The position numbers were made by a program, and so were the translations under genes. From IMG/VR virus record IMGVR_UViG_2541047888_000009: DNA of 40,155 nucleotides. One strand, written 5' to 3'. The stretch comes from a virus. Lineage: Duplodnaviria; Heunggongvirae; Uroviricota; Caudoviricetes. Each line of letters opens with the position of its first letter. Within the stretch, counting starts at the first letter, position 1. Under the pieces are notes generated by a model that saw only the letters and a program-made list of their open reading frames with translations, ran no database searches and had not been told where the DNA came from. Below are positions 6,397 to 38,067 of the stretch, piece after piece.

Positions 6397-6500
6397 GTTA
6401 AATCTCCAGATAGTCGCAGCACCCGTTGCGCCGCATATCTGGTTATTCTATTACCTGAAAAACCACATATGGATAGAAATACTGTGAATATAAATAGATA

Positions 6501-6515
6501 TTACCTTTTAGGTAA
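6501..6515. promoter_or_regulatory. Copy of the operator palindrome TTACC-N5-GGTAA (TTACCTTTTAGGTAA) upstream of the LexA-controlled moron
   Basis: Exact match to the 15-bp inverted repeat that clusters in the immunity region. Confidence 0.5.
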
Positions 6516-6554
6516 TTTGCAAAACGTGCTGGATAGCAAACAAATTATTTGATA

Positions 6555-6570
6555 CTGTATAAATATACAG
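6555..6570 (+). promoter_or_regulatory. LexA (SOS) box CTGTATAAATATACAG
   Basis: Perfect CTGT-N8-ACAG palindrome with AT-rich centre, 22 bp upstream of the ATG at 6593 and overlapping the probable -10 region. Confidence 0.7.
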
Positions 6571-6592
6571 TTATTGCATGGAGAAGATTAAG

Positions 6593-6850
6593 ATGCAGCA
6601 GTATCACTATCCACTGGAAGACGGATTTACCGAAAGGATTCACACGCCGGGAGGCGTCAAGTCACTGGTGGAGGGATCGCACTTGATGAAATTACTCCGG
6701 GATCTAGATAAGGATGGATTTAATGTCGATGGCCCACTTGCCGAACTGACTGCACTGATTAACTACGTCACCAGCTCACAGATGTCTATGCAGGATCTGC
6801 AAACACATCTCGACTATTGTGCCGAACAATTACGAAAACAAACCACATAA
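6593..6850 (+). CDS. LexA-regulated small protein (85 aa), opposite strand to the virion genes; candidate antirepressor
   Basis: ATG at 6593 preceded by GGAG (6581..6584); LexA box immediately upstream; followed by a hairpin terminator. No family recognised. Confidence 0.6.
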   Translation: MQQYHYPLEDGFTERIHTPGGVKSLVEGSHLMKLLRDLDKDGFNVDGPLAELTALINYVTSSQMSMQDLQTHLDYCAEQLRKQTT

Positions 6851-6873: not shown

Positions 6874-6885
6874 GTGACATGTCAC
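6874..6885. repeat. 12-bp perfect palindrome GTGACATGTCAC, copy 1 of 3
   Basis: Exact 12-mer also at 24431..24442 and 26882..26893; all three in short intergenic gaps. Confidence 0.8.
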
Positions 6886-7178
6886 GTCCCTTTTCTGAAT
6901 GATAGCCATTCGAAAAATGATGACATTCCACCGCAGACAATAGCAAAGATGATCCCACCAAAGAAGAGAAGGCCAGCCTGCCACCACTCCCACCGCCATA
7001 CATCCACAGCGCCAACCATACCAACAATCGCTCCAACAAATGGAATATAGCTCACGATGAAAGCAATGGGGGCTGCAATTATCCAGTGCAATCCCCACCA
7101 TGATTCAAGCCCAGCCATAATTGCTGCCAACTGAAAAAGACCAACGACGATATAAACAATGAATCCTATAGCTTGCAT
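6882..7178 (-). CDS. Small integral membrane protein (98 aa), unknown function
   Basis: AGGTGA RBS; three hydrophobic helices and a Trp-rich loop (VDVWRWEWWQAG); lies between the last internal virion protein gene and the tailspike. Confidence 0.55.
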   Translation of the reverse strand: MQAIGFIVYIVVGLFQLAAIMAGLESWWGLHWIIAAPIAFIVSYIPFVGAIVGMVGAVDVWRWEWWQAGLLFFGGIIFAIVCGGMSSFFEWLSFRKGT

Positions 7179-19459: not shown

Positions 19460-20452
19460 TTACACCACACGGGCTTCTGTTTCCAGAAGCGCATCAGTTT
19501 CACGGATTGGTACACCACGGAATGAAGTCCACCACTCGCCTTCTGTCTCTTTTACGCTGATCGCCAGAGATGTTTTCTCCAGAGATTGCAGATCAAGAGC
19601 CTGGCCTACAGTGCGGTTCATGTAGAACACCGGGCGACCCATTCCACGGTTTGGAATGCGATGCAGTGCTTTAACCATCAACTTCGCAATATTTGCGGCA
19701 GAGGAAGGTTCTGAAAGATTGCTGACATCGATGTTTGCAATGCGAACAACATAACGCCAGTCACGCAGAGCAAGTCCGTTGTCCCATTTGTAATGGGTGC
19801 GATAGCCTTCGTACTTGCCGCCATTAGCATCTTCCAGTGTCACCTGGCCTTTATCTTCCATCTGGATGCCAGCCTTCTGCCCTTTCGGGAAGATGCCATG
19901 CACGGTGTTTTCGCCCCACACCACTAACCAGATTGAGGTGTTATCTGTACCCGTGCCACCAGCATCAATGATGTTCTGAGCATTACCCGCAGACAGGCTG
20001 GAATAGCGGGAGGACAGTCCCATAAACTGCTGAGGGTTAACGCTGGAATCACCATAAAACAGTGTCTGCGCCATCTGCTGATTCATCGCTTCAATAAATG
20101 CGCGGTCTTCAGACAGGCGGAATTCGGCGGTATTACCGTTCAGATCAGCCAGTGACTTATCGACTTCAGCATAGGTTTCCAGCATGCCAACGTAATCGGT
20201 GACCTGCACTGTGGTTGATTTGCTTGGCTGTACGCCATAGTTCAGCAAACGCCAGGTAGCTGAAGGTAAACCAGAACGAATGGTGGTTCGGTGTCCGGTA
20301 GGAAGGTTCCCTTCGACAAAAGGCATATCCTGAAGGATCGGGTTAGTTTGACCGAGAAGCTCGATAATCTTATCGACTTTCCCGTTTGGATCGACGCGCT
20401 TACCCCAGTCAGCCAGCGTTAGCGCAGTTAAGCCTTTAACAGACATTGTCAT
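19460..20452 (-). CDS. Major capsid protein
   Basis: 330 aa, directly after the scaffold-like gene and before small head proteins; a hairpin follows the stop. Assignment by position and composition. Confidence 0.75.
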   Translation of the reverse strand: MTMSVKGLTALTLADWGKRVDPNGKVDKIIELLGQTNPILQDMPFVEGNLPTGHRTTIRSGLPSATWRLLNYGVQPSKSTTVQVTDYVGMLETYAEVDKSLADLNGNTAEFRLSEDRAFIEAMNQQMAQTLFYGDSSVNPQQFMGLSSRYSSLSAGNAQNIIDAGGTGTDNTSIWLVVWGENTVHGIFPKGQKAGIQMEDKGQVTLEDANGGKYEGYRTHYKWDNGLALRDWRYVVRIANIDVSNLSEPSSAANIAKLMVKALHRIPNRGMGRPVFYMNRTVGQALDLQSLEKTSLAISVKETEGEWWTSFRGVPIRETDALLETEARVV

Positions 20453-21162: not shown

Positions 21163-21455
21163 TCCTGTTCACTGGCCTCTTTGGCCATCTTCAAATACTG
21201 TTCAGGGCAATGCGCCATAACGCGCTGAAACAGTTCCAGCGCCAGATTGCGTTGCCCCTCATTAAATGCCATTGCCATAGCGTCCATCGGTGAGATAGCG
21301 GAAAACACACGGCCTTTCTCCAGCACCGACCAGACAACGCGACGCCCCTGTTCACTGCTCATGACAAAGCGAATGTCATCAATTTCACGCTGTGCCATGT
21401 CACGTTGCTTACGGGCGTTTTCTTCTTTCAGTTGATCATCTTCGTAATCTGTCAT
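21159..21455 (-). CDS. Small head-module protein (98 aa), unknown function
   Basis: Sits between portal and scaffold genes with overlapping stop/start. Confidence 0.5.
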   Translation of the reverse strand: MTDYEDDQLKEENARKQRDMAQREIDDIRFVMSSEQGRRVVWSVLEKGRVFSAISPMDAMAMAFNEGQRNLALELFQRVMAHCPEQYLKMAKEASEQE

Positions 21456-23131
21456 TGTGATTGCCCACCCTGACCACTAACTGCATTCGCCATAGCTGAC
21501 AAAACACTCGGATCCGAAGTTTTAGCTTCGCTTAGCGTCTTGGCGCCCTGTGCCGCCGCCATTCCCATCGCCATCATTTGTTGCTGCTGTTGCTGCTGTG
21601 CCCGTTGCTGGCGAGCCTGCTCAACCTGTTCCTGCGGAACAATGACGGTTGGAGACACTCCGGACATATCAGCGAATGCATCGATCGCCTGATCAACATT
21701 GAGTTTGTCGAGAGCTTCTGGTTTCGCTTGCGCAAGTTGACCAATGAAGTTGACCGTAGACGCCAGACTGGACAGGCCGATAGACTTCTGCGCCTGAGCC
21801 ATGACGGAAATGTATTCGACCTTCAGGGGCATACCTTCCATCGCGTCAGGCGGTGGCGGCAGCATGTTTTTACGCACCATCATCGAGAAAGCGCGGTCAA
21901 TGAGAGGATTAAGACATTCGTCGTTCAGACGCTCCAGAACCGGCCCCAACATCAGAAGTTTTTCTTCTTTCATTTCGATCACCGCTTCAACAGGCATCGA
22001 GCGGGTATTGATGTTCTGCAACATCATGAACAGATCGACAAAGTAGGCGCTGTTAATGATTTGACGAGTGTCCTGAATGTCTGCCACCAAATCTGCTGTA
22101 CTGGGGTTAACCAGATAAGCAGGCCTGAAGCCATCCTGACCAGTAATCTGATCGATATACGTGATGTCGCCAGGAAGAAGGGAGGCGCGCTGATTCTTGA
22201 GGGAAGTCGGAGCAACCATCGGCGGATTGGTGGCTTTATCAATCAACTGCGACTTGCGCTTCTGGAGAAGCTGCAATGCCTTAACAGGTCCAAGCGCCAG
22301 CATACCCGGGCATGATGATCCATAAACATCTTCGCCGTTAACTTCCCAGCGCGGAGCCATAATTGGAAACTCATCGAATCCGGACTCACGCAACAACTTG
22401 TCGTTATCTCCACCAACCTCGTAATAAACCGATTTGAATGGCTTGTTCTTGCTATCCAGCTTCGATGTATCGCGGTCAATGTTCGGGTAAACCGAATGCA
22501 TCACTTCGATCCACTTCTCGTAGGTGCCGCTTTCCCACATGCTTTTTACGGATTCGCTGACGTTATTTAGCCCGAACTCCTGAACAAGCTGACGAACAGT
22601 CATAGAGAACTTGCGAAAACAGGTGTCAACACTGCCACGAGGTGAGTTAGCCAGGTAGTAACTGCCTATCGGGAATGGCATTGTGCGAATGATGTCCTCG
22701 TCATCCTCCAGCACTGCCATTGCACCAGTGCTGTATGTGCCGAGGCTTCCGTATAACTGCGGAAGAGACTGGTAGAGATTCGACTTATTGAACATATCGT
22801 TCATGCGGTTCTGAACTGCCTCAAGCCACAACTTAACAGGGCCATAATCCATCATTTCAGGATCTGGCGTAGCCAGGCGAAACCACGGACGCGCAGGGCT
22901 TGTGATGCCTGACATCATGCCGCTGGCGAGAGTGCGCGCCGCCATAGTCCCGGTCGAATCAATAATGCGTGTATTGCGTCGATCGTTACGGTTGACCTCA
23001 GAAGTCAGAAAGCGGGAACCACGCGGGTTGATGTAATCACTCAACTCGCGCCAGTGCGGCTCGAACGACTGACGCTCGCTTTCAAGTTGTGCGAACTGTT
23101 TGTTCAATCGCTCTTTAGTTGTTTCCGCCAT
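21452..23131 (-). CDS. Portal protein
   Basis: 559 aa, first gene of the head module; poly-Gln C-terminal tail (QQRAQQQQQQQ). Confidence 0.8.
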   Translation of the reverse strand: MAETTKERLNKQFAQLESERQSFEPHWRELSDYINPRGSRFLTSEVNRNDRRNTRIIDSTGTMAARTLASGMMSGITSPARPWFRLATPDPEMMDYGPVKLWLEAVQNRMNDMFNKSNLYQSLPQLYGSLGTYSTGAMAVLEDDEDIIRTMPFPIGSYYLANSPRGSVDTCFRKFSMTVRQLVQEFGLNNVSESVKSMWESGTYEKWIEVMHSVYPNIDRDTSKLDSKNKPFKSVYYEVGGDNDKLLRESGFDEFPIMAPRWEVNGEDVYGSSCPGMLALGPVKALQLLQKRKSQLIDKATNPPMVAPTSLKNQRASLLPGDITYIDQITGQDGFRPAYLVNPSTADLVADIQDTRQIINSAYFVDLFMMLQNINTRSMPVEAVIEMKEEKLLMLGPVLERLNDECLNPLIDRAFSMMVRKNMLPPPPDAMEGMPLKVEYISVMAQAQKSIGLSSLASTVNFIGQLAQAKPEALDKLNVDQAIDAFADMSGVSPTVIVPQEQVEQARQQRAQQQQQQQMMAMGMAAAQGAKTLSEAKTSDPSVLSAMANAVSGQGGQSQ

Positions 23132-23145
23132 TTCAATGACTCCGG

Positions 23146-23352
23146 TTACTGACCAAGCAGCGTTTTACCGCTGGTATTAGCGGTTGATGTGTCGCCCTGA
23201 GAACCGGTAAGCAGCGTAGAACTACGACCAGCAGCAGCGCGACGGCGACGTGTTTCTTCGTCGCGGGCATCAACAACGGCGGCATCCTGCTCCTGTGGTG
23301 CTGCCTGAACTTCTGGTGTTGCAGGCACTGATGGTGAGCTACCCATGCACAT
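23146..23352 (-). CDS. Small Ser/Thr/Arg-rich protein upstream of portal
   Basis: ATG with GGAG RBS 8 nt upstream; 68 aa; low complexity. Confidence 0.4.
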   Translation of the reverse strand: MCMGSSPSVPATPEVQAAPQEQDAAVVDARDEETRRRRAAAGRSSTLLTGSQGDTSTANTSGKTLLGQ

Positions 23353-23420
23353 ATCAATGACTCCGTACGCAATTAAATCATTACCAATTTAACCACATAT
23401 GATTTATTTATCGTAGAATG

Positions 23421-23457
23421 TTGACATTTAACGCGTGAATTATTACCTTTCAGGTAA
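23421..23457 (+). promoter_or_regulatory. Candidate moron promoter: -35 TTGACA (23421..23426), 17-bp spacer, -10-like TACCTT inside an operator palindrome (23443..23457, TTACCTTTCAGGTAA)
   Basis: Consensus -35 hexamer; the -10 candidate coincides with the left half-site of the repressor operator motif. Confidence 0.4.
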
Positions 23458-23779
23458 CTAAAGAGCTCATTCTGGTTACTAACCTGACTGGCTTGTCGTT
23501 AAATTAAACAGGTGGAGTGAGCTTTTATTTTGAGCAGTACGGCGTATGGCACATGCGCCGATAGCGGTCTGGATACGTTTAAGGGGCACCCTCCCTTGCT
23601 CGGGCAAACGAACCAGGTAGCCGGAATGTGCAAGTCGAGCGGTTTTATTCCGCGCACGGGGATTCACCATCCCGGCGATTCGGTGTGACGCCTCGGAAGA
23701 GACGAGGGTACAACGATGAGAGCATTTATGGAGCCGCGACAAAGTGTGGCGCCTTAACAGGCTAAGTGCTCTCAGCGTT

Positions 23780-23856
23780 GTGGCATTAGCTCAGTCGGAC
23801 AGAGCAACCGCCTTCTAAGCGGTTGGTCGCAGGTTCGAATCCTGCATGCCACGCCA
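23780..23856 (+). tRNA. tRNA-Arg (anticodon UCU, reads AGA)
   Basis: Full cloverleaf folded by hand: acceptor GTGGCAT/ATGCCAC, D-arm GCTC-AGTCGGACA-GAGC, anticodon arm ACCGC-CTTCTAA-GCGGT, T-arm GCAGG-TTCGAAT-CCTGC, discriminator G, encoded CCA. Confidence 0.85.
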
Positions 23857-23899
23857 GAATCACGCCTAAGGACCGTGATGCCAGAAGTTCCAGGGGCTT

Positions 23900-23942
23900 G
23901 GCGGTGATGGTTTCCCTTGAAGGACTATCACCGCCCTTTTTA
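23900..23942 (+). terminator. Hairpin plus T-run downstream of the tRNA
   Basis: GGCGGTGAT ... ATCACCGCC (9-bp stem, long loop) followed by CTTTTTA. Confidence 0.45.
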
Positions 23943-24019
23943 CAGCAGGACGCCATTGCGATGACTTCATGCTGTAAACCCGTACAGCCACGGAAGGCAT
24001 AACTCATTGCTTCCAGTTC

Positions 24020-24043
24020 GCCCGGTTCGCCGGGCATTTTTTT
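24020..24043 (+). terminator. Strong intrinsic-terminator-like hairpin immediately upstream of the gp49-like gene RBS
   Basis: GCCCGG-TTCG-CCGGGC followed by ATTTTTTT; the AAGGTGA RBS and the ATG at 24055 follow directly. Confidence 0.5.
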
Positions 24044-24054
24044 AAGGTGAGATT

Positions 24055-24426
24055 ATGAACGACAAGCAAATCGAAAAAGAAATCGTTGAGAAAGGCAAAA
24101 CGGCACCGCGCGTTACGCCAGACCATATCGAAGGCATTATTGCTCAGGAGGCATATTTCACAGCAGAAGATGGTGCCTTTGGCAAAGCCATAAAAGCGAA
24201 ACATACTGGCGGAGAGGTAAACTACCAGCCGCACGAATCACTTTCTCTGCTGACGTTCTGCGTCCTGGTGCTGCGCAACGGCTTCACCGTCACCGGAGAG
24301 AGCGCCTGTGCAAGCCCGGAAAACTTTGATGCAGAAATTGGTCGGAAGATTGCCCGGCAGAATGCTGTAAACAAAATCTGGATGCTCGAAGGTTACTTGC
24401 TGAAGCAGAAGCTAAGCGAGCAATAA
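24055..24426 (+). CDS. Moron protein, probably of the phage gp49-like family (N4 Gp49 / Sf6 gene 66)
   Basis: 123 aa, opposite strand to the flanking terminase and portal genes; AAGGTGA RBS; segment TAEDGAFGKAIKAKHTGGEVNYQPHESLSLLTFCVLVLRNGFTVTGESACASPENFDAEIGRKIARQNA resembles that family. Family from memory. Confidence 0.6.
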   Translation: MNDKQIEKEIVEKGKTAPRVTPDHIEGIIAQEAYFTAEDGAFGKAIKAKHTGGEVNYQPHESLSLLTFCVLVLRNGFTVTGESACASPENFDAEIGRKIARQNAVNKIWMLEGYLLKQKLSEQ

Positions 24427-24430
24427 CACC

Positions 24431-24442
24431 GTGACATGTCAC
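24431..24442. repeat. 12-bp perfect palindrome GTGACATGTCAC, copy 2 of 3
   Basis: Exact repeat, 5 bp after the stop of the gp49-like gene and just before its terminator hairpin. Confidence 0.8.
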
Positions 24443-24446
24443 AAAC

Positions 24447-24474
24447 AGCCAGCCTATGAGCTGGCTTTGTTTTA
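24447..24474 (+). terminator. Rho-independent terminator of the tRNA/gp49-like moron
   Basis: AGCCAGC-CTATGA-GCTGGCT followed by TTGTTTT. Confidence 0.65.
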
Positions 24475-24516
24475 TCCTCATCAGAGGATATCAACGACAT
24501 TATCCCCACCAGCGGA

Positions 24517-25992
24517 TTAAGCATAGGGATCGTAATCTGTGATGGCCTTGCCTTGCTGGTTCTGCTGCCCGGGAATTCGCAGACGCTTCGACACAGGGAA
24601 CGCAAACGTCAGCAGTAGCGCATCGCCTTTACCAGGCGAACGCCCAAGCCGCTCCTTGATATCTTCCTTCGGTTCGATAACGATTTTACCGTCCACTCGA
24701 ACTTTGTACTCTGCCGCCGACAGATCGTCCGCTGTTTCCTGGTCATCCAGCATCCCTCCCAGCCTCAGCCATGTCTTGCATGAGTTGAACATCTCCCCAC
24801 GCTTGTTGAGCATCTGCTGGTCAGTAGACGCGCCACCGAACGGAACAAGTTGCCATGTACGACCCCAGCCGTCACCGATTGACTTCAAACCGGTTCCGTA
24901 ACCGAAGTCGATGAACACCGCGTCAGCCTGATACTGGTCTTCAAAGTCAGCGATACGCTTCGCCATAATCAGATCGTCGGTAGTCTTGTTGCCAGTCCAC
25001 AGCACCTTACTGTGTAGCCCCTGCCGCAGGTATATCACAGCGTCATCAACGCCGGAGTATGCCGGGTCAACGCCGATTATCACCGGAGCATGTGCAACCT
25101 GCGCAGCGGTGACCACCCGTTTCATTGCCTCGTCAGTAAGTCCGGTAGGGATAAACTGCAATTCAGATGCATCCGGGAATATGCCGCGCACACGGATTTT
25201 AACGAAGTCGCTGTCTTCCCCGTAGTCATCAACCCATTTCTGCAACTGCTGTTTGTTAGTGCCTTCCACCGTCCGGCTGTCAATCTGCGCAGTTTTCCAG
25301 CGGTGTTTATATTTGCGGAAACATTCGCGGAAACGCCCGGTGTTACGTGTAGGGTTTCCGAACGCCACCCAGATAATCTCAGTGTCTTCGTCCGTAAGCG
25401 CACCCTCAGCAACTTCCCACACCAGATCCGCAATGTTCGACGCTTCATCGAATACCACGATGATGCGTTTGCGCTCGTTGTGTAGTCCGGCGAATGCCTC
25501 AGTGTTGTGCTCAGACCAGGGGATTGCGTCAGCTCGCCACCGCTTGTCGTGCCCAGGATCATTGCTGTACATCGCGGTAGCGGTACAGGTAAACCAGTCT
25601 TTCGTGATAGCAAGGTTCGACCACTTGATAATTTCCGGCCAGGTCTTCGTTCGTAGCTGGTTGTCGGTGTTGGCGGTCACCACGACCTTACAATCCTCGC
25701 AAGTGGACATGCCCCAGTTGATCAGCATTGAGATGAATGCGGATTTACCAATACCGTGACCAGAAGCGCGTGCCAGCATAAGCGGCTGATAGCGCGTCGC
25801 TGGATTCTGCAGGTGATCACGTATCTCTCGGAACGCATCAGCCTGCCACTGACGTGGGCCGGTAGCATGTGCCAGTTCAGTCCCTTCTTCCCCCCACGGG
25901 AACGCATAGAGGGCATAGCCAAGCGGATCGTGAGTGAACCCTGCAATATCCTCGATCAACTGCTCTTCAGGAGATAACGCTGTATCTGTCAC
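24517..25992 (-). CDS. Terminase large subunit
   Basis: 491 aa; Walker A-like ARASGHGIGKS; acidic nuclease-type C-terminal half; start overlaps the small-subunit stop. Confidence 0.85.
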   Translation of the reverse strand: MTDTALSPEEQLIEDIAGFTHDPLGYALYAFPWGEEGTELAHATGPRQWQADAFREIRDHLQNPATRYQPLMLARASGHGIGKSAFISMLINWGMSTCEDCKVVVTANTDNQLRTKTWPEIIKWSNLAITKDWFTCTATAMYSNDPGHDKRWRADAIPWSEHNTEAFAGLHNERKRIIVVFDEASNIADLVWEVAEGALTDEDTEIIWVAFGNPTRNTGRFRECFRKYKHRWKTAQIDSRTVEGTNKQQLQKWVDDYGEDSDFVKIRVRGIFPDASELQFIPTGLTDEAMKRVVTAAQVAHAPVIIGVDPAYSGVDDAVIYLRQGLHSKVLWTGNKTTDDLIMAKRIADFEDQYQADAVFIDFGYGTGLKSIGDGWGRTWQLVPFGGASTDQQMLNKRGEMFNSCKTWLRLGGMLDDQETADDLSAAEYKVRVDGKIVIEPKEDIKERLGRSPGKGDALLLTFAFPVSKRLRIPGQQNQQGKAITDYDPYA

Positions 25993-26588
25993 TGATTGCC
26001 ATCCTGACGTTCTTTCAGTCTCTTCCTGGCTGCCGCTATGCGATCAGCAATTGTCACATTCACATTAACATCCAGGCGTTCTTTGAACGCGTTGACATCA
26101 ACATGCTTACCAATCAGCTCAAGGTTCTTCACCTTGTCAGGCCATTTAATTTTTTTGAGGATTGTCTCTATCGAATCCTCGTTCATGTTCATGATGGTCG
26201 ATGACAGATCAAAGCCGCTAAGCGTAGTGCGCCAGATTTTCGGCCACTCACGGATTGGTTTAAGGCTCCCATCGTCGTTGAGGATGTCGATCACGTCCAT
26301 CTGGTCGATCTCCACCAGGCGCATGAGAACGTAATCAGCACTGACGCGCATTCGTTTGTTGCGCTCCTCCATCAACTCGGCAATCCGTTTTTGAATGCGT
26401 TCATCGCGCATCATGACACTGGCTTTAACTGCCGCTGTATTTGGGGAGAATCCTGCGTTAATCGCTGCCTGAGTCTGGTTTTCAGGCGTTTTGATGTATG
26501 ACTGGCAATAAGCCTCCTGCATTGCTGTTAGTGGCTTAAATTGCGTTGATTTGCGTTTATAGGTTTTAGGTTCAGCAGGCATCATAAC
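25989..26588 (-). CDS. Terminase small subunit
   Basis: Immediately upstream of and overlapping the large subunit; segment LTAMQEAYCQSYIKTPENQTQAAINAGFSPNTAAVKASVMM matches the small-terminase pattern. Start at internal Met assumed. Confidence 0.7.
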   Translation of the reverse strand, partial: VMMPAEPKTYKRKSTQFKPLTAMQEAYCQSYIKTPENQTQAAINAGFSPNTAAVKASVMMRDERIQKRIAELMEERNKRMRVSADYVLMRLVEIDQMDVIDILNDDGSLKPIREWPKIWRTTLSGFDLSSTIMNMNEDSIETILKKIKWPDKVKNLELIGKHVDVNAFKERLDVNVNVTIADRIAAARKRLKERQDGNQ

Positions 26589-26659
26589 CACCGTGGTAAT
26601 AGTTACCGTTGTGGTAATAGTACCATGCAAAATAAAGCCGCCATAGTTGGCGGCAGTAT

Positions 26660-26872
26660 TCAAAGTCCATCAAATTCATCGTAAAAACTCTCGTCAAGAT
26701 ACCCTTCCCATTTACCGCGAATGAAAATTACATCCTCGCCGCAAGGGTGCTGACTGTCGATAACTATATCCCTCCTGGCGCAACCATACTTATGCATGAG
26801 AAATTTAACCTCTTTCGGAAAATTTGCTGAGTTATCTCTCATATCTTCAAGGTCGTAGCGTATTTTTGGCAT
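26660..26872 (-). CDS. Small hypothetical protein upstream of the terminase genes
   Basis: ATG at 26872 (MPKIRYDLEDM...); the listed ORF extends to a GTG inside the 12-bp palindrome, which is unlikely to be the true start. Confidence 0.45.
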   Translation of the reverse strand: MPKIRYDLEDMRDNSANFPKEVKFLMHKYGCARRDIVIDSQHPCGEDVIFIRGKWEGYLDESFYDEFDGL

Positions 26873-26881
26873 AACACCTTC

Positions 26882-26893
26882 GTGACATGTCAC
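26882..26893. repeat. 12-bp perfect palindrome GTGACATGTCAC, copy 3 of 3
   Basis: Exact repeat in the gap between the Zn-ribbon gene (stop 26890) and the small gene starting at 26872. Confidence 0.8.
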
Positions 26894-27237
26894 ACTATTA
26901 ATTTCGTTTCATGCCAGCCTTTAGTCACCCAGCATTGCGAGTCACCATTACACGGGCATGAATTAACGGGAACTCTCTCGCCGCACTTACCGCAAAGTTT
27001 TCTGCTGATCGATTTTATACGCCCGCGCACACGTGCATCATCCTGGCGGATCAGCAGCGCGATGTACTCGGCCATTTCATAGGGATCGCGACCAGGGCGC
27101 CGGGCGGCGCAGTTCCGCGCCAGCATTTCCTGCTCCTGCTTATCCAGCACCAGTTCAATTTTGCGCTCACCGGCGGCGGACTGCCGAGCGCGCTGCGCGG
27201 CTTTGCGTTCTGCGGGGGATTTAGCCACGAATCGCAC
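26890..27237 (-). CDS. Cys-rich (zinc-ribbon-like) basic protein; possible late-gene regulator
   Basis: 115 aa; basic N-terminus (KAAQRARQSAAGERK) and cluster CGKCGERVPVNSCPCNGDSQC; last sizeable gene before the terminase operon. Confidence 0.5.
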   Translation of the reverse strand: MRFVAKSPAERKAAQRARQSAAGERKIELVLDKQEQEMLARNCAARRPGRDPYEMAEYIALLIRQDDARVRGRIKSISRKLCGKCGERVPVNSCPCNGDSQCWVTKGWHETKLIV

Positions 27238-27343
27238 TCCACGCCAGATTGATTAATGACTCCCAGGCAATATAAACCCGGATACCAGCAGCCAGGCCGA
27301 AACCAATCACCATGGCATAAAGCAGAGCATTGCACTTGTTCAT
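27221..27343 (-). CDS. Possible 40-aa single-TM peptide
   Basis: ATG overlapping the upstream stop (ATGA); MNKCNALLYAMVIGFGLAAGIRVYIAW is hydrophobic. Short, so weakly supported. Confidence 0.3.
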   Translation of the reverse strand: MNKCNALLYAMVIGFGLAAGIRVYIAWESLINLAWSAIRG

Positions 27344-28101
27344 CACTTCACCTCCTGCGGCGGTTCCGGTAGCGGCATCCAGAACAAGGCGTTCCCTAAC
27401 CACGATAAAGTGCCGTCGCTCAACTCCACGTATTCCCCTTGTACCTGTCCTGCCATATACTCGCCGTGCTTTGAATAAATTAAAATCCAATCATCTTGAG
27501 CGGGCATTCGCTCACTACAGCTTATCCAACCATCCGGAGTTACCGGAGAGTTGCCAGCCTGAACAGTAGGCATATCAGGACCTTTGCGAATCGCCCTGGC
27601 AAGATCGATTGGGTCGTCGTACAACCAGTCACCTGTTTGCGGATGATTGGCTTCTGCCAATTGTGCAGCCCACTCCAGGCCGTCTTTGTGTCCTTGCAGA
27701 TAGTCCAGCGGTAACTCATCACTATTACTTACAGGTTCGGCCTGAAGCATGGCGGCGCGATAGGCGTTCCAGCCGACAGCTTTTCCGTGTTCAAACGCGC
27801 TGTCAAAGTCATCATCAATTTCCATCGCAGCGGGCACAGATACCGGCGCTGGCGGGGCGGTGTAAAGCGGCGTTACTTCTCGCAGCGGGTCGGCATAAGC
27901 ATTGCCACTATCGAAGCTGACGTTGTTTTTTGCCCCGCCTCCTGACAGCAACCACGCCACCGGCTCTGCTTCCAGCGATGTCAGCGCAATCCGCGCCAGT
28001 TCTTCCGCTTCTTCTGCTGGCAGTACAACGTTGCTACCAGGTCCGTATGTTTCGCGCCACTGCTTGATTGTCAGTAGTCGCTCTTTGGTAATAGTGATCA
28101 T
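27343..28101 (-). CDS. Hypothetical protein with DUF551-like C-terminal domain
   Basis: C-terminal segment DGWISCSERMPAQDDWILIY...WMPLPEPP resembles the DUF551 domain common in lambdoid early regions. Confidence 0.6.
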   Translation of the reverse strand: MITITKERLLTIKQWRETYGPGSNVVLPAEEAEELARIALTSLEAEPVAWLLSGGGAKNNVSFDSGNAYADPLREVTPLYTAPPAPVSVPAAMEIDDDFDSAFEHGKAVGWNAYRAAMLQAEPVSNSDELPLDYLQGHKDGLEWAAQLAEANHPQTGDWLYDDPIDLARAIRKGPDMPTVQAGNSPVTPDGWISCSERMPAQDDWILIYSKHGEYMAGQVQGEYVELSDGTLSWLGNALFWMPLPEPPQEVK

Positions 28102-28613
28102 GCCGCGTTTCCTTCTTTCTTATTAACAATTACACCGTCATATATTTCATTAAGGTGCCCTCTCAACTCCATGCGCCTTAATGCAGATAACATGTAATCG
28201 CATTCAACCTGCTTATTCCCAATAAAAGGTTTATCTTCAGGGTTACCCCAACAGCAATTCCCCTTGGGCCATCCATGTACTTTCCGTACTCTTCCGTTAA
28301 CAACGTGAAGTAATCCCCAGCCGGGAGGTAAATCCTCAACTGAAATAATTCCCGGCTCACTAATAAAGAATCGCCAGTCGCCCATTCCAAGAGATGGATT
28401 TTTACGAAAACGCTTTTTTCTATCTGCCAACAAGTCAGCACGAGAACACTTCGCCTCTATCAGGCATGATGCTGAATTTCTGAACCCCATAGCATCTGGC
28501 TGTTCTCCGGTACTGGTTACAGCTATAAAGCGGTCATGAAAACAAACCTTGAACCCGTTGCGCTTAAGGAACTTATACGCAATCTGACAGAGTTCGCGGT
28601 GTGTTAACGCCAT
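28098..28613 (-). CDS. Hypothetical protein with a possible PD-(D/E)xK nuclease-like motif
   Basis: Start at ATG 28613 with AAGGAG RBS; motif ...GEQPD...CLIEAKCS... fits a PD-ExK arrangement. Speculative. Confidence 0.5.
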   Translation of the reverse strand: MALTHRELCQIAYKFLKRNGFKVCFHDRFIAVTSTGEQPDAMGFRNSASCLIEAKCSRADLLADRKKRFRKNPSLGMGDWRFFISEPGIISVEDLPPGWGLLHVVNGRVRKVHGWPKGNCCWGNPEDKPFIGNKQVECDYMLSALRRMELRGHLNEIYDGVIVNKKEGNAA

Positions 28614-28614
28614 A

Positions 28615-28803
28615 TCACTCTCCTTTAGTGCGCAAGTGGTTTTTCCAGCGGTTTTGCGCCGCGCTGGGCTTTTTGCAAAAACCACAATCCATCATCCCGT
28701 AATATTTCATCAACCCCATCCGTCGGTTGCTGAGTCTCACCCACTGCCAGACGCCAGGAGCGTTTCTACGAACTAACAGAATCTTTGCTTTACGGTTTTT
28801 CAT
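28615..28803 (-). CDS. Small basic protein (62 aa), paralog B of a tandem pair
   Basis: Begins MKNRKAKILLVRR; start overlaps the upstream stop (ATGA); shares N-terminal heptapeptide and about 20 nt of start-region DNA with 28800..28976. Confidence 0.4.
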   Translation of the reverse strand: MKNRKAKILLVRRNAPGVWQWVRLSNRRMGLMKYYGMMDCGFCKKPSAAQNRWKNHLRTKGE

Positions 28804-30903: not shown

Positions 30904-30980
30904 TTACCTCTAAGGTAATTAAAAACCACATAAGACACGAAATCAATAGAGTTTAGAATGTTTTGTTACCTGATAGGTAA
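30904..30980 (-). promoter_or_regulatory. Internal promoter flanked by two operator palindromes (30904..30918 TTACCTCTAAGGTAA; 30966..30980 TTACCTGATAGGTAA)
   Basis: On the minus strand: -35 TTGATT, 17-bp spacer, -10 TTTAAT, with one operator over the -10/+1 and one upstream of the -35. Confidence 0.5.
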
Positions 30981-31017: not shown

Positions 31018-31818
31018 TTACTTGATAAATCCTGCCGCCTTTCCCCGCCTGTATTCCTCCATCAGCCACTGCGCCGGTGTTATTCCCCCCAGGGTAGCGG
31101 CGTTAGGCATACACCCGAAACTTCGCCCTGGTGGATGGTAAACGTCTCTCCCTGTGTCCGGAGGCGTACTCATGGGCTCTGGCTTTGCCTGTATGCTGAT
31201 CACCGGATCGGGTATCTGCTGTCCGGAAGCCACCTTTTTCGCCCAATCATCGAGCAGCCTGCGTGCGTGTTTCTCAACCTCAATCTCGCTAAGCTGGCGC
31301 TGATACATTGCACGGCGGGTATCACATACGACCCAGTACATAACCGGATGTCGCCACGGGAATCTTTCGGGACCACCAGGATATAAACTTTTTTCCTTGC
31401 TGTACCGGTGAAACTCCGCCATCACATCGTCAATGGTGACGCCAAGAACCATCTTGCTGTCTTTACACCACTTGATAAATTGCCCTGGAGACGGCCAGAA
31501 CGGAGATTCACTGGCGCGGGCGTGGCGCATACCAGCAGAAACCTGTTCACGGGTTCGGATCCCCCCTTCGGCAAACGCAGCAATCCACTGCTGTTTTGCA
31601 GCAACTTCCTGCTCTGGCGTCTTCAGGTTGGTTACCACTGCCGCCGGAAACAGTTGTTTCAACTGTTTGAAAAGGGCATCAACAAGCCTCTCTGCTGACA
31701 TGTTCACTACGTTGTCATTGTTGGTGTACTGATGCTCATAACCTGACATGCGAGAAAGGGCTTCTCCGTCACGGTTTTGTATCGCGGTAAAAACGTTGTT
31801 CACAAGAAATCCTCCCAT
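31018..31818 (-). CDS. Replication protein P-like (helicase loader)
   Basis: Segment QQWIAAFAEGGIRTREQVSAGMRHARASESPFWPSPGQFIKWCK aligns by eye with lambda P (RRQWVLAFRENGITTMEQVNAGMRVARRQNRPFLPSPGQFVAWCR). Confidence 0.8.
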   Translation of the reverse strand: MGGFLVNNVFTAIQNRDGEALSRMSGYEHQYTNNDNVVNMSAERLVDALFKQLKQLFPAAVVTNLKTPEQEVAAKQQWIAAFAEGGIRTREQVSAGMRHARASESPFWPSPGQFIKWCKDSKMVLGVTIDDVMAEFHRYSKEKSLYPGGPERFPWRHPVMYWVVCDTRRAMYQRQLSEIEVEKHARRLLDDWAKKVASGQQIPDPVISIQAKPEPMSTPPDTGRDVYHPPGRSFGCMPNAATLGGITPAQWLMEEYRRGKAAGFIK

Positions 31819-32615
31819 GCTTCAGGGCTGTTCCAGTGCGGAACGTTGTTATCAGGTAATGTTGATTGCTTCTGTCTGCTAATCTGCAGCCGCCTTGCCA
31901 GCTTCTGCTCCCACTGTGCCTGATGGTATGCCTTACCCTCAGCCATCCAGTAAATTCTGAACTCTGCAAGTTCCTGTGCCGTTGGCAGACTGTCCAGGTA
32001 GATCCCCTGCAATGAGCTTTTCCGAAGAAAGTCATCTGATGGTTGCCATTGTTCATGCATGACAAATTTGCCTAATTGCCCTGGCCCACCAGGAGGAACA
32101 AAGTTATTCATCACGGCGTTGTTTGCGCCGGGGTCATGAGGCACAGAATCCCCGCTTTTTGTCCTGCTCTCCCTCTCTTGGTTAAATGACTGGTTATATG
32201 ACTGGTTCTGGATCCCGTTTTTGGGATCATTCAACATCCCGTTTTTGGGATCATTCAACATCCCGTTTTTGGGTATATTCCCGTTTTCGGTAACATTACC
32301 GTTTTCGGGTTCATTACCCCCTTCCCGGTTGCCTTTAATGTTCCCGTTTTTGGTTATATTAAGAGAGAAAACCCGCACTCTTTTCGTCGCTCCCTTTCTC
32401 TCTCCGGTATCTGAAATAAGCCCCATTTTCATGAGCGATATAAGCCCGGCCTGCACGGTTTTTTTATTCAGGCAAGTGTCTTTAACGAGGCGTTCTATGC
32501 TGGGGTAGCAGAGGTTATATTCATCGGCTCTGTCAGCCATCGAGAGCAGTATGAGCTTTAATGACGAGCTACCTGGATCTGTCTCCCAGGCCCAATCTGT
32601 TGCATGTCTGCTCAT
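31800..32615 (-). CDS. Replication initiator, O-like (N-terminal winged-helix domain, repeat-encoded linker, DnaT-like C-terminus)
   Basis: GGAG RBS; N-terminal LKLILLSMADRADEYNLCYPSIERLVKDT...; internal Asn/Gly repeats encoded by the iteron DNA; immediately upstream of and overlapping the P-like gene. Confidence 0.7.
   Translation of the reverse strand: MSRHATDWAWETDPGSSSLKLILLSMADRADEYNLCYPSIERLVKDTCLNKKTVQAGLISLMKMGLISDTGERKGATKRVRVFSLNITKNGNIKGNREGGNEPENGNVTENGNIPKNGMLNDPKNGMLNDPKNGIQNQSYNQSFNQERESRTKSGDSVPHDPGANNAVMNNFVPPGGPGQLGKFVMHEQWQPSDDFLRKSSLQGIYLDSLPTAQELAEFRIYWMAEGKAYHQAQWEQKLARRLQISRQKQSTLPDNNVPHWNSPEAWEDFL
32212..32360. repeat. Iteron-like direct repeats (candidate replication origin) inside the O-like gene
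   Basis: ATCCCGTTTTTGGGATCATTCAAC appears twice exactly in tandem, followed by degenerate copies (CCCGTTTTTGGGTATATTC, CCGTTTTCGGTAACATTAC, CGTTTTCGGGTTCATTACC, CCCGTTTTTGGTTATATT). Confidence 0.6.
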
Positions 32616-32934: not shown

Positions 32935-32960
32935 ATGAAAAGACCGCCGGATGGCGGTCT
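32935..32960 (-). terminator. tR1-like terminator hairpin downstream of the Cro-like gene
   Basis: AGACCGCC-GGAT-GGCGGTCT stem-loop followed on the minus strand by TTTTCA (short U-tract). Confidence 0.4.
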
Positions 32961-32981: not shown

Positions 32982-33212
32982 TCATGAGTAGAAGAAGTAT
33001 GCCAGTTCTGCTTTTGAGCGCAGCCATTGTCTTGATTTACAGGCTTTAAAAAGCCCATCCATCAATACCTTACCTGGCATTTTGCGCTTACCTGTTAAGT
33101 GAGTCTGGATATAGTGACTCGTCGTTCCGGCTTCCTGTGCGAAGGCTTCACGCTCATCCGGAGTAAGTGCAAGCCAGTGCTTTTTGAAATCGAAATGTCC
33201 GTTATCGCTCAT
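32982..33212 (-). CDS. Cro-like HTH regulator
   Basis: 76 aa, divergent from the repressor gene across the operator cluster; HTH-like segment REAFAQEAGTTSHYIQTHLTGKRK. Confidence 0.55.
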   Translation of the reverse strand: MSDNGHFDFKKHWLALTPDEREAFAQEAGTTSHYIQTHLTGKRKMPGKVLMDGLFKACKSRQWLRSKAELAYFFYS

Positions 33213-33237: not shown

Positions 33238-33311
33238 ATAATAAATATTCACCTATAAGGTAACAAAAATCAAGGATAGTTACCCATGAGGTGCATTTAC
33301 CTGTTGGGTAA
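33238..33311. promoter_or_regulatory. OR-like region: three operator palindromes (33249..33263, 33280..33294, 33297..33311) and a PR-like promoter reading leftward
   Basis: Sites TCACCTATAAGGTAA, TTACCCATGAGGTGC, TTACCTGTTGGGTAA; on the minus strand -35 TTGTTA (33261..33266), 17-bp spacer, -10 TATTAT (33238..33243), about 25 bp before the Cro-like ATG. Confidence 0.65.
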
Positions 33312-33366
33312 TATTGCTTTAAATTGAATCATCTACTGATTCATATATGAGGCGATTTTCCAGAAA

Positions 33367-33951
33367 ATGAAAAGTATCCAGGACGTCCGCAGGCAAAATC
33401 TCAACGACTTGATCGACCGTGAATTCAATGGTGTTCAGACGCGGATGGCCGAAAAACTTGGAACTCAGGCAAATCTGGTAAACCGCTGGGCTCTTGGTAA
33501 GAAGGTTATCGGCGATCAGGTTGCGCGAAAAATTGAAGCTGCCGCCAATAAACCCCGTAACTGGCTTGATATCGATCGCTCGCTTTCTCAGGAAGGTTTT
33601 CAGCCTGTCGGCCCAAGCGACATTGGCCAGCTGGCGGCTCACAACCTGGAACGCTGGATGAGCGAAAGCCGCGACCTTTCAACACAGGGAAAACTTCACC
33701 GCGCATCCGGCGTAGCCCAGGTGACAATCAGCCGCCTGTTAAACAATGAGGTCAGCGTTTCCATTTCCACCCTGGAGAATGTTGCATCTGCATTCGGGCG
33801 TCACGGATATGAACTACTGATTCACCCGCACGACCCTGCAACTATCAACTATGACCGCTCGCGCTACGCATTGTTACCTGAAACAGAGAAAGCAAAGATC
33901 GAAAGTTACATTGAATTTGTCATCAACCAGAACGAAAAAAGCAAACAATAA
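33367..33951 (+). CDS. Prophage repressor (CI-like), tandem XRE-type HTH domains, no recognisable S24 peptidase domain
   Basis: Two HTH-like segments (QTRMAEKLGTQANLVNRWALGKK and ASGVAQVTISRLLNNEVSVSISTLENVASAFG); sits between operator clusters, divergent from the Cro-like gene; terminator follows; no SD before the ATG. Confidence 0.65.
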   Translation: MKSIQDVRRQNLNDLIDREFNGVQTRMAEKLGTQANLVNRWALGKKVIGDQVARKIEAAANKPRNWLDIDRSLSQEGFQPVGPSDIGQLAAHNLERWMSESRDLSTQGKLHRASGVAQVTISRLLNNEVSVSISTLENVASAFGRHGYELLIHPHDPATINYDRSRYALLPETEKAKIESYIEFVINQNEKSKQ

Positions 33952-37767: not shown

Positions 37768-38067
37768 GTGAGAAAGTTAAGCCGACTTGAAAAATATCAC
37801 ATGAACAAGGTTTCAATGCGCAGCCATTCAAAGGTTGTTGCCGTTACTCCTGCGGCGATAGAGATCGAAAAACGCGCGATTGAAAGAGAGAAAAAAGGGC
37901 AGTTCCGCATTGCCGCCCACCTTTGGCTTCAGTGTATGGATGTTGCTTCTGGTGATGTTGAGCGTGCAAGGATCGCGGTTCGCAGGGACCAATGTATCAC
38001 AAAAGGTAACGGCCTTCGCCGTGGCGACTATAGCGGCATAGGATGTTGTGGGGTGGTTTATGACTAA
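37768..38067 (+). CDS. Hypothetical small protein (possible regulator)
   Basis: 99-aa ORF overlapping the methyltransferase start; start codon ambiguous; no motif recognised. Confidence 0.4.
   Translation: MRKLSRLEKYHMNKVSMRSHSKVVAVTPAAIEIEKRAIEREKKGQFRIAAHLWLQCMDVASGDVERARIAVRRDQCITKGNGLRRGDYSGIGCCGVVYD

Follow-up and report, generated by a model that had tools for sequence, protein, structure and literature searches.

A predicted ribbon-helix-helix phage protein family with a Cys4 knuckle and a 12-bp palindrome at its own stop codon: a likely regulator of transcription at module junctions

The Q antiterminator of phage lambda carries a zinc-binding motif. The stoperators of mycobacteriophage L5 are asymmetric, numerous sites bound by the immunity repressor, and LacI bound to the operator at the 3′ end of lacI acts as a roadblock, with SsrA tagging of the truncated product. 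In Gram-positive temperate phages, the late activators RinA, ArpU and LtrC are encoded by a small regulator gene right upstream of terS with the target in between, and RinA binds a defined late promoter (PMC3152322). Here, we analyzed a 40,155-nucleotide stretch of viral DNA (IMG/VR record IMGVR_UViG_2541047888_000009), which is referred to below as the window. It is an epsilon15/phiV10/TL-2011b-like (Uetakevirus-type) temperate podophage with its early-right and late genes on the minus strand. Our subject is a small Cys-rich gene that lies ahead of the terminase genes, called here the family gene, together with the 12-bp palindrome GTGACATGTCAC at its end.

The minus-strand open reading frame (ORF) of 115 amino acids (aa) at 26890..27237, containing CGKCGERVPVNSCPCNGDSQC, was found as described in the original prediction, which had been made from the letters of the window. 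The homologues (728 found) are almost all 112 aa long in the 120 listed, so the start is probably GTG 27228; the alternative GTG at 27237 gives the 115-aa product. The 112-aa form has an isoelectric point of 9.6, 23 Lys and Arg residues, and 6 Cys residues. The protein matched phrog_536, a profile labelled ‘transcriptional regulator’, with E = 1.2e-53 (residues 5-114 on profile positions 3-114 of 115). A tblastn search gave 80% identity to epsilon15 gp49 and 39% to N15 gp46. By these matches, the protein is a member of the epsilon15 gp49/N15 gp46 family (PHROG 536). When 1.84 billion cluster representatives (50%-identity library) were searched exhaustively with HMMER, 149 clusters reached E ≤ 0.001; many of these are fragments or products of frameshifts, and they include at least one false positive (P0243, a HEAT-repeat protein). 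The window protein matched no Pfam (to E ≤ 0.1) or NCBIfam model, and a phmmer search of the PDB with this single sequence returned noise only. Longer homologues were searched for domain fusions and showed no informative partner, and the distant member P0208, used as a query for related loci, gave no viral contigs. One record labels a homologue ‘RepB-like’. In the literature, we found no functional study of a family protein or of the 12-mer; the vB_EcoP_ZX5 paper covers other regulators.

The palindrome is perfect and has the form GTGAC-NN-GTCAC. It had been noted as following the stop of the family gene; the palindrome itself is there, except that it overlaps the TGA and is one of three exact copies in the window, at 6874, 24431 and 26882 (sites S3, S2 and S1 in Table 1). 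The chance expectation for GTGACNNGTCAC is 0.03 per window from shuffles and 0.03-0.04 per 40 kb. Each of the three copies lies at the 3′ end of an ORF, and two of them adjoin intrinsic terminators. S2 stands 4 nucleotides (nt) past the stop of a moron gene and 4 nt before the terminator of the moron (24447-24466, plus strand). S3 is followed with zero gap by a terminator at 6873-6856(-), which consists of AGGCCGCtttcGCGGCCT and then TTTCTTT. The family gene and the 98-aa ORF at S3 are unrelated, yet the palindrome supplies the TGA of both, in one and the same register. Exact copies were found at the equivalent junctions of epsilon15 (39612, 2142 and 19517), and the copy at 19517 lies at the gp18 stop and is followed by an annotated terminator. 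The recurrent order is an ORF stop, then the palindrome, then a terminator. Like stoperator-type elements, the three exact copies are short, repeated, and placed at gene boundaries within transcription units. For comparison, we used 80 related IMG/VR loci with 82-100% protein identity, of which 77 were scored for cargo at S1 and 76 for S2. The 12-mer covers the family-gene stop in 77 of the 80 Uetakevirus-like loci.

The linkage of gene and site was also observed in distant phages. Almost all of the lineages examined have GTGAC-NN-GTCAC on or beside the stop of the family gene, and this holds to protein identities as low as about 28-35% (Table 1). Three sites per complete genome were counted in the window, epsilon15, N15 and K308, and one in a Yersinia P2-like phage. 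The N15 (L013) sites, at 28550, 33237 and 39269, comprise one at the gp46 stop, one inside repA (~620 nt from its start), and one 3′ of gene 33 and 5′ of the terminator of the antirepressor operon. The N15-like prophage L009 has a site at 1092, in the same place of repA as in N15. The N15 positions suggest that, in telomere phages, the sites may have a part in replication or in the control of anti-immunity. In K308 and L101, the first site is located between the family gene and the holin gene, and the second 11-19 nt 5′ of the TerS start codon. As a separate observation, GGGACCATGGTCCC occurs three times in 12 kb of L009; it is distinct from the palindrome studied here and resembles the SopB-type dispersed centromere sites of N15 and F.

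Comparison of the lineages shows invariant half-sites (GTGAC/GTCAC) around a freely varying central 2 bp, which argues for a symmetric dimer on duplex DNA and not for an RNA hairpin. An RNA-hairpin (boxB/N-like) reading, prompted by the arginine-rich N-terminus, was rejected as the main model, as the stem is invariant, the centre varies, and a 5-bp stem leaves a 2-nt loop. Folded as RNA, the palindrome would form a 4-bp stem at most, and the GTGTCCGGTCAC variant of L100 breaks the pairing without compensation. A host site of the CRP/FNR type was ruled out by the 2-bp spacing of the half-sites. Likewise, an 11-nt repeat before TerS was discarded as the target of the family protein, because it belongs to two TTACC-N5-GGTAA repressor operators. 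Since the family gene is the one annotated neighbour found consistently near the sites across phages, we infer that the family protein binds GTGAC-NN-GTCAC.

An alignment of 55 diverse full-length members was the basis for the conservation analysis and for an AlphaFold2 model. The alignment contains a basic N-terminal motif, ERKxxQRxR, in which R8 is nearly invariant and R13 invariant, and a conserved PYxxxEYxxxLI helix. Residues C79, C82 and C99 are invariant, and the fourth Cys shifts its position (C91/C93 in the window protein), giving a spacing of C-x2-C-x8/10-C-x5/7-C. The monomer model (pLDDT, the predicted local distance difference test score, of 90.6) comprises a helix at 5-18, an extended segment at ~22-28, helices at 30-42 and 52-74, a Cys knuckle at 78-99, and a helix at 100-108. 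On this model, we are confident in assigning the core to the ribbon-helix-helix (RHH; beta-alpha-alpha) fold of the Arc/MetJ/CopG class. Matches to RHH-type Pfam models were weak and confined to few members (RHH_5 in 2 of 55, E = 0.013; RepB-RCR_reg in 2 of 55, E = 0.028; RHH_1 in 1 of 55), with none for the window protein. Foldseek searches of the PDB and BFVD gave nothing significant except a fragment of the same family. The long helix and knuckle were also compared with the C4 finger of DksA/TraR: YbiI (E = 0.023) and TraR (E = 0.037) were the best PDB profile matches, with an hhalign probability of 42%. The second CxxC of that finger (C-x2-C-x17-C-x2-C) is not present, its place being taken by a single Cys at 91/93 and C99, and fold searches returned neither TraR nor DksA. 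Judged by its conserved residues and the model, the protein is very probably a zinc-binding, nucleic-acid-binding regulator. To this extent, the earlier proposal of a zinc-ribbon late activator or antiterminator is borne out by the Cys residues and the RHH fold; the module is not a classical zinc ribbon, and there is no homology to Q or Ogr.

The fold class, the conserved Cys residues, the gene-site linkage and the junction positions come directly from the analysis, whereas site binding by the protein and the sign and mechanism of its regulation are inferred; the family protein is likely a junction-bound transcription regulator, whose action could be negative or positive. The explanation that we favour, to which we give nearly an even chance, is that the gene product is a small dimeric RHH DNA-binding regulator with a Zn(Cys)4 knuckle, which has its cognate palindrome at its own stop and controls read-through at the junctions. 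The protein would be made from the early rightward operon (the minus strand in the window). The dimer would occupy three junctions, namely the end of the early operon before TerS, the one after TerL, and the one before the tailspike/lysis block, and would set how much transcription crosses them. We lean towards a roadblock or insulator action at these sites. If RNA polymerase stalled at S1, the transcripts of the family gene would lack a stop codon, and the result would be negative autoregulation, as in the case of LacI at the 3′ lacI operator. Transcription of the early, late and moron units would be kept separate, and gene and site would travel as one unit among unrelated phages. Sites that cover the gene’s own stop, precede a ribosome-binding site or fall within coding sequence are more readily explained by an elongation block than by activation of a promoter. 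Such a block is supported by the sites inside repA of N15 and L009 and by those 11-19 nt before TerS in K308 and L101.

Several observations weigh against the junction roadblock. The proposed pairing of protein and palindrome is based on their co-occurrence, and the family members of L009-L011 and L068 have no site at the gene end. S2 was present in 51 of the 76 related loci and missing from 25. The half-site is constant, whereas the family is variable at the beta-strand positions with which RHH proteins usually read bases, so recognition would need the conserved N-terminal helix or the Zn module. An early-made roadblock that reduces late read-through would bring no obvious benefit in lytic growth, and we found no convincing sigma-70 late promoters, which would make insulation necessary.

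We consider it unlikely, and yet the foremost of the alternatives, that the protein is a positive late regulator, either a palindrome-bound antiterminator analogous to Q or RfaH or an activator of late promoters, which would switch on TerS-TerL and the head/tail and tailspike/lysis genes. The original prediction, which suggested such a role, had also seen no lambda Q-like gene ahead of the late operon. Indeed, Pfam and PHROG detected none among the early-right and early-left ORFs and the few morons scanned; this set did not include late structural ORFs. In Uetakeviruses, in Vibrio-type phages and in others (L006/L102, the latter being K308, as well as L101 and L098), the early genes end with the family gene and the lysis/packaging genes follow, with copies of the palindrome in the interval; in K308 and L101, this interval runs from the family gene to the holin and TerS genes. 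No Q-like gene was called in the examined stretches of K308, L101 and L098. In the window itself, the family gene is not the last sizeable gene before the terminase, as had been stated, because a 77-aa ORF at 26660-26893(-), of the real family phrog_1541, lies between it and TerS. Late-strand terminators are found 227 nt past S1 and 0 nt past S3, and 40-41 nt past S1 in relatives without cargo. The late region has no excess of sigma-70-like promoters, and several terminators have to be crossed. In cargo-less relatives, S1 reads GTGACA-18-CATGAT followed by the terminator, a Q-type-like layout that was read by eye and is weak, and the C-terminal helix and knuckle are weakly like the RNA polymerase-binding finger of TraR/DksA.

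Homology does not support a positive late regulator, however. The profile searches that the original prediction had proposed, against Q, Ogr/Delta and other late-activator families in Pfam, showed no homology. The Q families PF03589, PF06530 and PF06323 were absent among the 25 listed of the 41 families matched at E ≤ 1 by the 55 members. The hhalign probability was 0.1% against N15 Q and 0.3% against P2 Ogr. There was no Pfam match to Ogr/Delta/B (PF04606), and the Cys residues do not have the C-x2-C-x22-C-x4-C spacing of the Ogr-type proteins, which are about 70-90 aa long. With no profile similarity to either, the protein falls outside the Q and Ogr/Delta families. Moreover, homologues coexist with Q-like genes in N15 (gene 40), ZF40 (gp25) and the N15-like prophage L009, where they are in mid-operon, and in N15 and phiKO2 the family gene is away from the annotated Q-type late promoters. 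This coexistence indicates that the family is not a general substitute for Q. An Ogr homologue in the Yersinia P2-like phage was considered as further evidence of coexistence and dropped, as none was found among the small ORFs. The arrangement of the sites also speaks against late activation: no constant spacing separates the palindrome from the next promoter or terminator, the terminator at S2 comes before the palindrome on the late strand, N15 and L009 have sites inside repA, and the Yersinia phage has a single site and not one per late operon. At S1, the candidate -10 is destroyed by the cargo insertion in the window, and a consensus scan saw no promoter.

The premise that a dedicated late activator is to be expected at this place may itself be weaker than it appeared. 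The motif TTACC-N5-GGTAA has 13 matches in the window at ≤1 mismatch, as compared with 0.47 expected. It marks the OR/OL immunity region; further copies precede TerS and the portal unit (23443), and one is close to the tailspike/ant-like region (6501). The two operators before TerS contain the 11-nt direct repeat ACTATTACCAC twice, and the epsilon15 record annotates a repressor site at the equivalent place. These operators at late units, together with the matching ‘repressor’ sites of the epsilon15 record, suggest that late units may be partly under direct repressor, or stoperator-like, control, and such control would reduce the need for the expected activator.

The junctions are also places of exchange, and an improbable explanation is that the palindrome is mainly a recombination or boundary sequence for moron exchange, or is bound by another factor, with the protein being CopB/RepB-like or TraR-like. 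The region downstream of S1 and both flanks of S2 are wholly replaced between loci, the 12-mer stays exact, and the breakpoints of the swaps are within a few nt of it. The slot after S1 occurs in at least three states: among the 77 loci, 43 have the terminator 40-41 nt on and nothing else, 29 have the 77-aa ORF, and 5 have a LexA-box promoter with a umuD-like or other gene. In the window, the 77-aa ORF is inserted between S1 and the terminator, and it is not present in TL-2011b and EC.W1-9. Both flanks of S2 vary, with at least six different cargo genes across the loci. An exchange sequence would also agree with the shared register in which the palindrome provides the TGA of two unrelated ORFs, and another job for the protein with the YbiI and TraR profile matches (E = 0.02-0.04, hhalign 42%) and the single ‘RepB-like’ annotation. 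On the other hand, homologous exchange would need more than 12 bp, and there is no recombinase that accompanies the site from lineage to lineage. The most consistent neighbour of the site is the family gene, in podoviruses, a myovirus, a P2-like phage, N15-like phages and Vibrio phages; other shared genes were not systematically compared. A TraR-like job is disfavoured by the missing second CxxC.

Three observations on the cargo stand by themselves. In L062, L066, L086 and L091, a promoter TTGACT-N15-TATACT overlapping a LexA box lies ~0-120 nt after S1 and is followed by a umuD-like gene (MGFPSPA...). The moron in the S2 slot of the window, 23780-24466(+), between TerL and the portal gene, consists of a tRNA-Arg(TCT) gene at 23780-23856 and an N4-gp49/Sf6-gp66-like gene at 24055-24426, followed by S2 and the terminator; an Rfam scan of 23000-28000 revealed tRNA only. 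In L050 (protein P0004), a natural deletion has removed the last codons of the family gene, S1 and half of the terminator, giving a 135-aa fusion to the TerS leader; L050 is a possible natural S1-less variant for comparison.

A bolder form of the junction-regulator explanation, which we rate as improbable as a mere exchange sequence, joins regulation with exchange. Gene and site would be a portable regulator-plus-operator cassette that marks moron-swap junctions and decides whether terminators are passed, i.e., a Q-independent late/cargo switch or insulator, possibly with a TraR-like contact to RNA polymerase. If true, it would be an undescribed switch or insulator common to podoviruses, myoviruses, P2-like phages and telomere phages.

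Finally, a role as an architectural or directionality factor for excision/integration, with the site at the attP edge or next to int/xis, is very unlikely. In its favour, the gene is directly 3′ of the integrase in L008 and L096, at most three genes from it in K308, L098 and L101, and directly upstream of xis/int in Pantoea AH07, and the site is followed by a mostly non-coding stretch (K308, L096, L098) or by ACCAC(A/G)AAA direct repeats that could be arm-type sites (K308, L098, L101). Against it, Uetakeviruses, N15 and the P2-like phage have gene and sites at a great distance from int/attP, N15 does not integrate, and three dispersed sites per genome are unlike a single attP. The repeats, in the form (T/G)ACCAC(A/G)AAA, are located at 33240-33400 in K308 (L102), 5560-5620 in L101 and 5430-5470 in L098, and could be attP arm-type sites or late-promoter elements.

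The coordinates of the features in the window and the positions of the site in other phages are collected in Table 1.

Table 1. Features of the window and location of the palindrome relative to the family gene in other phages.
Feature	Position	Strand	Description
S1	26882..26893		GTGACATGTCAC; TGA stop of family gene (26892-26890) inside, bases 2-4; predicted cognate site
S2	24431..24442		Between TerL stop and convergent plus-strand moron
S3	6874..6885		Holds TGA of 98-aa ORF 6882-7178(-), same register as S1
One-mismatch copy GTGCCATGTCAC	21392..21403		Within coding region; no epsilon15 equivalent; status uncertain
Family gene	26890..27228	-	112 aa from GTG 27228; predicted basic N-terminal helix, RHH core, Cys4 knuckle, C-terminal helix
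Cargo ORF, variable	26660-26893	-	77 aa as listed; probable start ATG 26872 (~70 aa); phrog_1541, E = 3e-39
Intrinsic terminator, early operon/TerS boundary	26628..26654 (26654-26637, then TTTATTTTG)	-	GCCGCCAACTATGGCGGC then TTTATTTTG
Two adjacent CI-type operator motifs	26585-26617		TTACC-N5-GGTAA, directly 5′ of TerS start
TTACC-N5-GGTAA sites	13 within 2942-34085		E.g., 33249, 33297, 34009, 34071, 30904, 30966, 26585, 26603, 23443, 6501
TerS, first late gene	25989..26585	-	Pfam Terminase_2, E = 1e-29; start ~26585/26582
Replication genes	31018-32615	-	DnaT/helix-turn-helix and lambda-P-like
Accessory genes	Between replication genes and family gene	-	Early region; include ea22, DUF551
cro-like gene	32982-33212	-	
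CI-type repressor	33367-33951	+	
Site in Pectobacterium myovirus ZF40	5 nt past stop		GTGACATGTCAC
Site in N15, phiKO2	Over TGA		GTGACTGGTCAC
Site in Enterobacter MStein	At gene end		GTGACTGGTCAC; record unannotated
Site in Pantoea AH07	Over TGA		GTGACCTGTCAC
Site in Vibrio 10N.237, metagenomic L008	Over TGA		GTGACAGGTCAC
Site in Yersinia P2-like phage	Over annotated TGA		GTGACGCGTCAC
Site in L098/L099	15 nt past stop		GTGACAGGTCAC
Site in L100	17 nt past stop		GTGTCCGGTCAC, one-mismatch variant
Site in K308, L101	226 nt and 138 nt downstream of family gene		Palindrome

The closest relatives of the window are Escherichia phages EC.W1-9 and TL-2011b, which have ~94% identity to positions 26400-28800 (megablast) and whose annotated neighbourhoods show the same gene order. 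TerS is annotated as a protein of 197 aa in TL-2011b. TerS and TerL together occupy 24517-26585(-), and the portal, head, tail, tailspike and lysis genes come next. At the place equivalent to the terminator at 26628..26654, a rho-independent terminator is annotated in the epsilon15 record.

Further elements of the window were observed beside these features. A strong intrinsic terminator, AGACCGCCATCCGGCGGTCT then TTTCAT, is located at 32941-32960(-), right after the cro-like gene and before the replication genes. As it lies inside the early operon, some antitermination, N-like or RNA-based, must already act there; no N-like gene was identified in the window. The only other candidate activator is a PerC-family homologue at 37768-38067(+) in the early-left operon (Pfam PerC, E = 6e-7; phrog_868). 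The sequence TATGTGGTT has four exact copies on the minus strand (6461-6469, 6841-6849, 23391-23399 and 30924-30932), as against ~0.15 expected per strand. All of them fall in intergenic DNA of the late-gene strand, close to repressor operators or immediately beyond the S3 terminator. They may represent a promoter, a host-factor site or an RNA element. Finally, a near-consensus LexA box, AACTGTATATTTATACAGTA, at 6553-6572 precedes by 5 nt a 90-aa plus-strand ORF (6578-6850), with a repressor operator at 6501-6515. This ORF looks like a small antirepressor-type moron under SOS and repressor control, convergent with the late operon.

Late-gene control in epsilon15/phiV10-type phages, which are common prophages of E. 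coli, Salmonella and Klebsiella, is unexplained by the regulators identified in the window. For a widespread family, there is now a predicted fold, together with a predicted 12-bp target and a reproducible genomic grammar of ORF stop, palindrome, terminator and variable cargo slot. The 12-mer marks the exchange points of morons (umuD-like genes, tRNAs, antirepressor-like genes), which is useful in prophage annotation and engineering.

Compared with the described systems, the family protein shares with the RHH repressors (P22 Arc and Mnt, CopG, CopB/RepB of plasmid R1, AmrZ, omega) a predicted beta-alpha-alpha core, a small size and a short palindromic site. Unlike them, it is extended by a conserved basic helix at the N-terminus and by a Cys4 knuckle and helix at the C-terminus, its beta-strand residues are unconserved, and its putative site is found where its own gene ends and at junctions between operons, not at a promoter. 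The Q antiterminators (Q-lambda, Q82 and Q21, with QBE, PR′ and tR′) are similar in being encoded by the last early gene, with a putative site right 3′ of the gene and a terminator before the late genes. They differ in that the family protein is about half the size of Q and has no profile similarity to it, its site is not in a recognisable promoter with a pause element, and family members coexist with real Q genes. The RinA/ArpU/LtrC activators correspond in gene position upstream of terS, but their fold and family are unrelated (no Pfam match), and no promoter of the RinA type is evident here. As with the roadblock operators of L5 and LacI, short repeated sites stand at gene boundaries in transcription units, and one overlaps the end of the regulator’s own gene. 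In contrast to the L5 stoperators, the immunity-type operators in the window are a separate motif, TTACC-N5-GGTAA, and the roadblock for the family is a proposal made from sequence. With the C4 fingers of the DksA/TraR group (TraR, YbiI), the protein shares a long helix followed by C-x2-C-G-x2-[LI]-P. What is new here is an uncharacterised family of predicted RHH-Zn regulators with a distinctive operator-in-stop-codon arrangement.

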